From NCBI RefSeq assembly GCF_001677475.2, contig NZ_CP015229.1: DNA of 64,000 nucleotides. One strand, written 5' to 3'. This DNA is from Escherichia coli (lineage in GTDB: Bacteria; Pseudomonadota; Gammaproteobacteria; Enterobacterales; Enterobacteriaceae). The stretch's first letter is position 1; each line of letters opens with the position of its first letter. Below the pieces are notes generated by a model that was not told the DNA's origin, did no database searches, and saw only the letters and a program-made list of their open reading frames with translations. Position numbers and translations under genes: made by a program. This document shows, one piece after another, positions 23,884 through 24,927 of this stretch.

Positions 23884-24927
23884 TTATGAGTATTTAACGG
23901 ATGATGTTCCCCAGGGCACATTTCTGATGGGCCAACGGCATTTCTTACTGTAGTGCTCCCAAAACTGCTTGTCGTAACGATAACACGCTTCAAGTTCAGC
24001 ATCCGTTAACTTTCTGCGATAGCAGCAGATATGCCAGTAAAGAAATCCCATTAGACTATTTTTTTGATAATCTTCTTCGCTTTCGAACAACTCGTGAGCC
24101 TTTCGAGAAGCAAGCATTATATAATGCCAGGCCAGTTCTTCTTCAATTGTCCCGTTTTGAAAAGCTGTGCTCGATATCGAGATCATCCATGATAATTCCG
24201 CCGCCCATATTAGCTTCGCCGAGGATTTACCGGAGCAATGATTAGCGCAATCAGAGATATAGTCAGAGGGGAAAACAGCAAATTTATTCAACAAGGCGAT
24301 AACCTGCTCTGGGGCTTCCTCCATGTTCGCTTTAAAGGTATTGGCTCCATGGTCGCCAGAAAGAAAATGCTCCATTAAGGCACAATAACTTTCGCTATCG
24401 TCGATACCCCATTGATCCTCTAAAGACACGCGTCTTTTACTGATGATATCGATCGAATCAAAAGGAAGCACATGATATTGAAAGGTATCTTTGCCAGGTT
24501 CAGGCTTTCGCGGCCAGAACTCCAGCGTTTCAGACCATTGCTTATGATAGAATCGATAAGGTGCGATCAATTGTAGCGCCTGTAATTTCTCGATACTGAG
24601 CGGCTCAATACCTTTAGCCTGATAATAATGCAGCTGTTCTTTTTTTGCTTTAAAACCGGCCCGAACAATAAGCCCCATCATAATTAATAGATAAAGAAAA
24701 GAGCATCCCGCGGTAATCAGGCCTCTTTCATTCAAACCGTTGGATGTTATAGCTGCGAATACAAACATTACAGCGACAACACCTGTTAAATAAAACCCCC
24801 ACTTACAAAGCAGCATGGCCTTATTTTCTTTAATCATCCGTTCAAAATTACTATTAAATATTTCCCAGCCTTTGAAAGAATACTTCTCGCTCCCTGGATG
24901 GTTTTGCAATAAAACTTTTTTCATCAC
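23884..24927 (-). CDS. ynjI: DUF1266 inner membrane protein
   Basis: ORF track 347 aa; AT-rich by eye. Confidence 0.8.
   Translation of the reverse strand: MMKKVLLQNHPGSEKYSFKGWEIFNSNFERMIKENKAMLLCKWGFYLTGVVAVMFVFAAITSNGLNERGLITAGCSFLYLLIMMGLIVRAGFKAKKEQLHYYQAKGIEPLSIEKLQALQLIAPYRFYHKQWSETLEFWPRKPEPGKDTFQYHVLPFDSIDIISKRRVSLEDQWGIDDSESYCALMEHFLSGDHGANTFKANMEEAPEQVIALLNKFAVFPSDYISDCANHCSGKSSAKLIWAAELSWMISISSTAFQNGTIEEELAWHYIMLASRKAHELFESEEDYQKNSLMGFLYWHICCYRRKLTDAELEACYRYDKQFWEHYSKKCRWPIRNVPWGTSSVKYS

Follow-up and report, generated by a model that had tools for sequence, protein, structure and literature searches.

ynjI as part of an old, AT-rich haplotype at a probable exchange site between gdhA and topB in Escherichia coli

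An AT-rich gene lying between two housekeeping genes of much higher GC content raises the question of how it came to be there. The stretch of DNA analysed here (termed the window; 64,000 nucleotides of contig NZ_CP015229.1 in the Escherichia coli assembly GCF_001677475.2) contains such a gene, ynjI, between the convergently oriented gdhA and the topB gene. A first-pass annotation of the letters alone had read ynjI as horizontally acquired, on account of its base composition and of the REP elements beside it. The gene could indeed be a recent arrival, but it could also be an old occupant of a site at which several alternative sequences are exchanged. The two readings differ in what they lead one to expect of its relatives, its flanks and its age.

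The identity of the gene can be settled at the outset. The list of open reading frames contains a single long frame between gdhA and topB, at 23884-24927 on the minus strand. Position 24927 is an in-frame GTG one codon 5′ of the annotated ATG at 24924; the coding sequence starts at this ATG, which follows the sequence AGGGAA and fits the start of the annotated 346-aa protein of K-12. The K-12 orthologue is listed in RefSeq as ynjI (b1762), a DUF1266 domain-containing protein of 346 aa. The first-pass assignment to DUF1266 is borne out by profile searches. The Pfam profile DUF1266 (PF06889) scores 92.1 bits against a cut-off of 27 and aligns over its full length (profile positions 1-175) to residues 167-338, while the NCBIfam profile NF008480 (YnjI equivalog, PRK11380) scores 659 bits against a cut-off of 386 over residues 1-346. 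The genes and elements of the locus are as follows.

22424-23767, plus strand: gdhA
23741-23767, plus strand: last 9 codons of gdhA, which co-vary with the type of cargo (haplotype comparison)
23777-23806, plus strand: REP element 1, GCCTGATA...TATCAGGCCTAC (motif search, palindromic arms, conservation)
23841-23870, minus strand: REP element 2, inverted relative to element 1 and forming a BIME-like pair with it (motif search, arms, conservation)
23884-24924, minus strand: ynjI coding sequence, 346 aa (open reading frame list, RefSeq K-12, Pfam DUF1266, NCBIfam NF008480, dN/dS)
24925-25051, minus strand: spacer upstream of ynjI, 37% GC, with the ribosome-binding site AGGGAA and, from the literature, a BglJ-RcsB-activated promoter
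24967-25015, minus strand: terminator-like hairpin (25015-24977) and T-run downstream of topB (sequence)
25052-25240, minus strand: 3′ end of topB, encoding a C-terminal tail of ~30-60 codons that co-varies with the cargo (haplotype comparison)
25052-27010, minus strand: topB

The composition of ynjI is atypical by several measures. The frame at 23884-24927 has a GC content of 0.418 (0.454, 0.368 and 0.431 at the first, second and third codon positions, respectively), compared to 0.506 for the window, 0.539 for gdhA and 0.553 for topB. Relative to the other 53 long open reading frames of the window, its GC content is the second lowest (rank 2 of 54, z = -2.67), and its GC3 ranks third among the same 54 (z = -2.28). 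No more than 2.5% of the 1044-bp sliding windows reach this AT content, and the best-fitting block of low GC, at 23940-25045, has 40.6% GC against 54.3% in its flanks and corresponds to ynjI together with its upstream spacer. The codon adaptation index (CAI) is 0.230, the fifth lowest of the 54, a value of which the rank alone is usable; the Karlin codon bias B depends too strongly on gene length to decide on ynjI. Thus, the first-pass impression that ynjI is AT-richer than gdhA and topB holds (41.8% versus 54-55%, z = -2.7), and with windowed GC and codon adaptation computed the gene remains an outlier rather than falling within the normal range.

This AT-richness has two sources. When YnjI is re-encoded with the mean codon choice of the window, its gene would have 45.9% GC, which means that ~6 points of the deficit derive from the amino-acid composition of the protein and ~4 points from AT-biased synonymous choice, each amounting to about 2 SD. 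The bias at synonymous sites has a z of -2.1. The AT-richness of ynjI is also persistent: every allele of the gene has 41-43% GC, at protein divergences of up to 32% and even in a locus of 54% GC. Because all alleles have such values, the AT-richness is an enduring property of the gene and not the signature of foreign DNA that has yet to be ameliorated; amino-acid composition accounts for about 60% of it, codon choice for about 40%.

Published work on regulation is in keeping with such a trait. The ynjI promoter is moderately repressed by H-NS/StpA and activated by BglJ-RcsB; an hns stpA mutant shows a moderate increase in expression, and BglJ-RcsB brings about a strong one (PMC3950696). The upstream spacer of 37% GC, together with this regulation, fits a gene that is normally silent, and the persistent AT-richness fits a weakly expressed gene that is partly silenced by H-NS/StpA and switched on by BglJ-RcsB.

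What occupies the site between gdhA and topB in other strains was examined in 5,426 complete E. coli genomes. The gdhA end of the query has a match in all of these except 13; the genome counts are summary arithmetic on chimeric queries, with single copies assumed. The suggested check of presence or absence across strains gives a clear polymorphism. ynjI is present in 3,454 of the 5,426 genomes at a coverage of at least 80%, or in ~3,489 when fragments are counted (~64%), and the remainder are without it. The junction is empty in 1,496 genomes (~28%), the empty form of ST131 consisting of gdhA, 76 bp and topB. A further 355-369 genomes (~7%) carry at this position a cassette encoding a 647-aa protein with a J domain and Sel1 repeats and a 566-aa HscC-like Hsp70. 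Variants of the cassette have two tandem J/Sel1 genes or an additional 266-aa protein with a signal peptide; the latter (in ATCC 25922) was considered as a further DUF1266 protein and rejected, given its signal peptide and the absence of a Pfam match.

ynjI itself comes in more than one form. A second allele (ynjI-2) encodes 343 aa at the same site and has 68% amino-acid and 75% nucleotide identity to the first. It is found in between 1 and ~28 complete genomes, a range that reflects identity bins contaminated by short matches, and on at least 24 public contigs. Occasional IS1 insertions occur within ynjI (H13).

The boundaries of the variable region do not coincide with the ends of the intergenic DNA. 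gdhA and topB are 94-100% identical between haplotypes except for their 3′ tails. gdhA ends in CTGGCGCAGGGTGTG in the ynjI haplotypes versus TTAAGCCAGGGCGTG where the site is empty or carries the Hsp70 cassette. Over its final ~190 nt, topB has 32-77% identity to the empty and Hsp70 haplotypes versus 94-100% further upstream, and the encoded TopB tail peptide reads ...APGGGEGKKKDSPRKRAP... in the empty type and ...APGGESVKKAPNKRVKK... in the Hsp70 type. The tail of the ynjI type differs from both, and that of Pseudocitrobacter matches the ynjI type. Because the ends of both flanking genes change with the cargo, replacement of the whole block by homologous recombination in the flanks is indicated. 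In this mechanism whole haplotypes would be exchanged, and the cargo would travel with its intergenic DNA, the final gdhA codons and the TopB tail. It is therefore probable that the gdhA-topB interval is a multi-allelic hotspot that holds ynjI as a known, functional accessory gene. A literature search for a hotspot at gdhA-topB found nothing relevant.

The YnjI family is small, with 80 matches among 1.84 billion representative proteins, and full-length relatives beyond the close group have 23-33% identity. A species scan (a 9-sequence query with a single peptide pattern and one genome per species, which missed E. coli itself) recovered two close relatives, one in Escherichia sp. MOD1-EC7003 (90% amino-acid identity) and one in Pseudocitrobacter vendiensis (81%), and no others. 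Among the species representatives of Salmonella, Citrobacter, E. albertii and E. fergusonii it detected no ynjI, a provisional result. Since the scan found no ynjI in these representatives, a history of vertical descent alone needs several losses. The order topB-ynjI-gdhA is retained in Escherichia sp. MOD1-EC7003, in P. vendiensis and in a contig from a Hadza gut. Divergence between the window and Pseudocitrobacter is as follows.

ynjI: nucleotide identity 81.8%, dS 1.16, dN/dS 0.085
gdhA: nucleotide identity 82.9%, dS 1.29, dN/dS 0.029
topB: nucleotide identity 82.7%, dS 1.26, dN/dS 0.041

A dS above 1 is near saturation, so that "equal age" of ynjI and its flanks is an approximate statement. 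With a dS of 1.16 compared to 1.26-1.29, and with the REP pair and the TopB tail shared, the ynjI haplotype would be as old as its flanks in both genera. The dN/dS of ynjI ranges from 0.05 to 0.17. For the rare second allele within E. coli, dS is saturated (~4), while that of its flanks is 0.07-0.15; this allele is a genuine import or an ancient balanced lineage. Comparison of the sequences thus points to ynjI as a gene under purifying selection and an old resident of the hotspot, whose alleles are replaced by recombination.

A different history would have ynjI as an ancestral, core-like gene that was deleted in lineages such as B2, its AT-richness being a by-product of membrane-protein composition and low expression. 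Such a gene should diverge in step with its flanks, as ynjI does in Escherichia sp. and Pseudocitrobacter, and the contribution of about 60% that amino-acid composition makes to the GC deficit, along with a CAI that is low yet not unique, would also be expected of it. However, the empty haplotype is not a clean deletion, because its intergenic sequence is distinct, and its REP, the end of its gdhA and its TopB tail all differ from those of the ynjI haplotype. The same site also holds other cargoes and a second ynjI allele with saturated dS, the single-pattern scan did not find ynjI in most of the Enterobacteriaceae species representatives, and the synonymous sites of the gene are AT-biased too (z = -2.1). 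A core-like gene lost by deletion is thus unlikely, and the exchange of whole haplotypes remains the preferred history.

The architecture of YnjI bears on what the cargo of this hotspot may do. The features encoded within ynjI are as follows.

24892-24909, minus strand: LQNHPG motif at the N-terminus of the YnjI family, codons 6-11 (alignment)
24745-24813, minus strand: predicted transmembrane helix 1, ~aa 38-60 (Kyte-Doolittle hydropathy; AlphaFold helix 37-60)
24655-24723, minus strand: predicted transmembrane helix 2, ~aa 68-90, preceded by a short loop (hydropathy; AlphaFold helix 66-104)
23911-24426, minus strand: DUF1266 domain, aa 167-338, all alpha-helical

Among 53 full-length relatives with 18-80% identity, residues Q7 and N8 of the N-terminal motif reach a conservation of at least 90%. 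In the family alignment the LQNHPG motif is almost invariant, and there is also a conserved juxtamembrane region, EQxxYY...WxETLExxP, that precedes DUF1266. Lysine and arginine number 7 before helix 1, 1 in the loop and 5 after helix 2, a positive-inside pattern from which both ends of the protein are predicted to be cytoplasmic. AlphaFold models of the full-length protein (pLDDT 93.5, pTM 0.90) and of residues 95-346 (pLDDT 92.3, pTM 0.90) are all-helical, and their structural neighbours are helical-repeat-like only. A sequence-profile search of the PDB with YnjI returned spurious matches only (E above 1e-3) and no solved structural relative. YnjI would then span the inner membrane as a hairpin of two transmembrane helices, with its N- and C-termini in the cytoplasm, and would present the LQNHPG motif and the all-helical DUF1266 domain on the cytoplasmic side. 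It resembles a scaffold for binding other proteins more than it does an enzyme.

A lead to the possible partners of such a scaffold comes from the soluble DUF1266 proteins of K-12. The genes ybeR and ybeU overlap the starts of djlB and djlC, respectively, by 4 bp and lie beside hscC, in a neighbourhood that also has two Sel1/TPR genes. Overlaps between a DUF1266 gene and a J-protein gene are also found in Salmonella (two pairs together with an Hsp70) and in Leminorella (one pair). HscC is stimulated by DjlC. The Hsp70 of the cassette found at gdhA-topB is 43% identical to HscC, and its partner has a J domain like that of DjlC and Sel1 repeats like those of YbeQ. Because the soluble DUF1266 paralogues are translationally coupled to DjlB and DjlC, YnjI may be a partner of the HscC Hsp70 system, perhaps as an adaptor, regulator or client of a membrane-associated, HscC-type system with the tail-anchored J-proteins DjlB and DjlC.

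The distribution of hscC can be read in more than one way. hscC is present in ~3,372 of the ~3,489 ynjI-positive genomes (96.6%) versus 1,049 of the 1,937 ynjI-negative ones (54%), and in 141 of ~369 cassette carriers (38%), none of these figures being corrected for phylogeny; the co-occurrence of ynjI and hscC could be pure population structure. YnjI matches YbeR and YbeU pairwise at an E of about 0.01, and since this similarity is weak its function may have diverged. The overlap with a DjlB/DjlC-type gene that marks the HscC module is not found at ynjI, which stands alone. Contexts of ynjI-type genes in Photorhabdus, Sinomicrobium and Ignatzschineria, at the enterobacterial yniA-yniB site and in an island with a YobI-type ATPase showed no conserved neighbour of the Hsp70 or J-protein kind. 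Both ynjI and its distant relatives stand by themselves amid housekeeping genes, the relative in Photorhabdus lying between zur and lldD; that of Sinomicrobium is next to a SUKH-1 gene. By analogy with the coupled paralogues, it is a tentative proposal, with the odds against it, that YnjI is a membrane-tethered partner of the HscC/DjlB/DjlC system. Taken together, the history of the hotspot and the mechanism proposed for YnjI form the best explanation overall, one considered somewhat better than an even bet.

A broader version of this proposal treats all cargoes of the site as a single functional class: a membrane-associated, non-canonical Hsp70 system with DUF1266 as adaptor or sensor, possibly acting in envelope stress or in conflict with phages or toxins. 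This seems rather doubtful at present. If it were true, YnjI would provide the first functional handle on DUF1266 and on HscC/DjlB/DjlC.

The cargoes could also be weapons in their own right. In that case ynjI would be a gene of a conflict system (anti-phage, abortive infection, or immunity/toxin), and gdhA-topB a small defence-type hotspot at which ynjI and the Hsp70 pair are alternatives. The several AT-rich cargoes and deeply divergent alleles of the site are suggestive of this. The SUKH-1 (SMI1/KNR4) family, a gene of which adjoins the Sinomicrobium relative, includes immunity proteins. In one further genome a relative clusters with the YobI-type ATPase and a Sel1-like protein, the cassette Hsp70 weakly matches the PADLOC candidate PDC-M61B (E = 6e-4), and each of the two cassette proteins has a match among PHROG families of unknown function. 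YnjI itself, however, matches no family of PADLOC (PADLOC-DB 2.0, 0 families) or PHROG, and no neighbouring gene is a known defence gene. A literature search found no link of the locus, or of HscC-type or Hsp70-J systems, to defence. The Photorhabdus relative is a fixed solo gene in about 15 species, and the whole-gene dN/dS of ynjI shows no diversifying selection. A role in conflict is accordingly improbable for ynjI, and the membrane-tethered partner proposed above is preferred as a guide to its function.

The REP elements are the remaining part of the case for acquisition. A search for the REP motif gave 4 matches against 0.4 expected, a number that 0 of 100 shuffles reached. The two elements listed above both end in GGCCTAC, their palindromic arms are confirmed, and they lie between the convergent genes gdhA and ynjI, bounded by the two stop codons. 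They thus have the properties of REP/BIME sequences, namely imperfect palindromes of ~30 nt with a GGCCTAC tail, arranged as an inverted pair at the 3′ ends of genes. The pair is found on the gdhA side only; the topB side of ynjI has a hairpin and no REP. This means that the first-pass description of ynjI as flanked by REPs stands for the real pair at 23777-23870 but not for the side of topB. A scan of 21500-27500 against Rfam, at E values of up to 1, gave no match, and therefore no known RNA accounts for the region.

Every ynjI haplotype retains the pair: K-12, the rare E. coli ynjI allele and Pseudocitrobacter have it in an identical position, and in Pseudocitrobacter the spacer between the elements is also the same. 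Because the REPs are conserved with the ynjI haplotype into Pseudocitrobacter, they are no mark of a recent insertion; on this conservation, the pair is part of the haplotype rather than an insertion scar, and it did not mobilise ynjI. Most likely it acts at the 3′ ends of the convergent gdhA and ynjI transcripts, as a terminator or mRNA stabiliser, and it may also provide a recombination junction. On the gdhA side the rare allele is identical to K-12 through the end of REP 2 and divergent beyond it, which suggests that the REP region can act as such a junction.

Other marks of mobility were sought as well. No tRNA gene lies in 15000-35000, flanking direct repeats around ynjI are short and at chance level, and tblastn searches of plasmids and phages gave no genuine copy of ynjI. 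What these searches did return was discounted: a "plasmid" record of 4.8 Mb that is mislabelled, and a fragment of 1.9 kb. The RefSeq annotation of K-12 has core genes only around ynjI.

These observations bear on the reading of ynjI as a young, un-ameliorated insert of foreign DNA that entered on a mobile element or through REP-mediated insertion. Two properties of a classical island are indeed found at ynjI: atypical composition (GC z = -2.67, GC3 z = -2.28) and variable presence among strains (3,454 of 5,426 with ynjI, 1,496 empty, ~369 with other cargo). A very patchy taxonomic distribution and repression by H-NS/StpA (PMC3950696) would likewise be expected of recent acquisition. Two other properties of such islands are not found, however: mobility hallmarks (tRNA gene, integrase or transposase, flanking repeats, plasmid or phage copies) and an age below that of the flanks (dS 1.16 versus 1.26-1.29 against Pseudocitrobacter, which shares site, REP pair and TopB tail). 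Moreover, alleles that differ by up to 32% in protein all have 41-43% GC, and dN/dS values of 0.05-0.17 speak for long-term selection. Recent acquisition is thus largely refuted and seems very improbable. Of the first-pass claim of horizontal acquisition, what survives is that ynjI is accessory, patchy, exchanged and atypical in composition; what does not is the recent, un-ameliorated and REP-bounded insert. That ynjI is a decaying or non-functional frame, as its low, silenced expression (PMC3950696) and the occasional IS1 insertions (H13) might suggest, is hardly credible in view of its dN/dS of 0.05-0.17, its full-length retention in thousands of genomes and across genera, motifs conserved among relatives of 18-33% identity, and a highly confident structure model.

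The preferred reading of ynjI as an old, exchanged haplotype makes it a clean case in which low GC does not mean recent transfer, since the gene, the REP pair and the TopB tail are common to another genus at the synonymous distance of the core flanks. ynjI is a known gene beside ordinary REP elements, and the observation as first made is ordinary. What is added to it here is a probable multi-allelic hotspot at gdhA-topB, an apparently ancient AT-rich haplotype, and a testable lead that connects DUF1266 with Hsp70: one slot of 0-3 genes alternates between a DUF1266 membrane protein and an HscC-type Hsp70 with its J/Sel1 partner.

Comparison with known systems places these findings. The protein of the window is 98% identical to K-12 YnjI (b1762; annotated as inner membrane and DUF1266), has the same length and occupies the same gdhA-topB position; the two are one gene, the allele of the window differing by ~2% in protein. 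The lineage of the window has 97.6-97.8% identity to its best complete E. coli matches over 24 kb. Like the REP/BIME sequences of enterobacteria, the pair beside ynjI has the GCC(G/T)GAT...ATC(A/C)GGCCTAC signature, a length of ~30 nt and an inverted arrangement between convergent genes. It is an ordinary pair in these respects and differs in its one-sided position and in being kept, together with the haplotype, as far as Pseudocitrobacter.

Two soluble proteins encoded in the ybeQ-hscC island, YbeR and YbeU, share the Pfam domain DUF1266 with YnjI, and their genes, like ynjI, are accessory and variable among E. coli genomes. They are 235 aa long, have no transmembrane helices and are each translationally coupled to djlB or djlC beside hscC. 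Unlike them, YnjI has an N-terminal motif, two predicted transmembrane helices and an extra juxtamembrane region, and its gene has no partner gene.

The closest parallel to the site as a whole is found in the replacement hotspots of E. coli that hold AT-rich genes silenced by H-NS. As in those hotspots, alternative cargoes of low GC lie between core genes, and repression by H-NS/StpA is relieved by a dedicated activator, as published for ynjI. The gdhA-topB site differs from them in that the window has no tRNA gene or flanking direct repeat there, in that its cargo is tiny (0-3 genes), and in that the exchanged block enters the 3′ coding ends of both flanking genes.

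The 3′ ends of the genes that flank the gdhA-topB hotspot vary together with the cargo it carries. The last codons of gdhA (window 23741-23767) occur in discrete versions that are linked to cargo type, and the same is true of the C-terminal ~30 residues of TopB, which are encoded at the 3′ end of topB (window 25052-25240). The TopB tail of Pseudocitrobacter is the ynjI-type version.

When the 24 kb of window 14000-38000 are compared with 5,426 complete E. coli genomes, even the closest of them reach only 97.6-97.8% identity, and the whole set lies within a 95-99% band. The window therefore comes from a divergent Escherichia lineage that this set does not include.

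ynjI is not the only AT-rich part of the window, as another such region spans 41425-44571 and contains two adjoining ORFs:

41425-42900, ORF of 491 amino acids with MASE4 and GGDEF domains, GC 0.383
42901-44571, adjoining ORF with GAPES1 and GGDEF domains, GC 0.457

The first of these has the lowest GC among 54 long ORFs, and the minimum for a 1044-bp sliding window over the entire window sequence (0.345) starts at 41325. Elsewhere in the window, a motif search found weaker REP-like matches at 32623-32636 and 51028-51041, with two mismatches each. A YnjI fragment with 98% identity to E. coli is also encoded on a 926-bp contig labelled Bacillus coahuilensis m4-4 (NZ_ABFU01000109.1, locus L012), almost certainly because the Bacillus assembly is contaminated.

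At the hotspot, E. coli ATCC 25922 (L030 7275-8075) and strain K-15KW01 (L031 2565-6485) each have a variant form of the Hsp70 cassette. The former encodes an additional 266-residue protein with a signal peptide, which had no match in Pfam or PHROG, and the latter carries two J-domain/Sel1 genes in tandem. In ET650, another carrier of the Hsp70 cassette, ynjH (DUF1496), which lies immediately upstream of gdhA, is truncated by an insertion of the IS5-like element ISKpn26 (L002 2126-3489).

The ybeR-hscC island of K-12 (L029 4168-10850) is also variable among E. coli genomes. It is covered to at least 80% in 3,664 of the 5,426 genomes and matched at least partially in 4,428, while it is missing from ~1,000, and some genomes have only a single DUF1266/J-protein unit there. 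The alternative Hsp70 cassette is more common in genomes that lack hscC, which make up 228 of its ~369 carriers.
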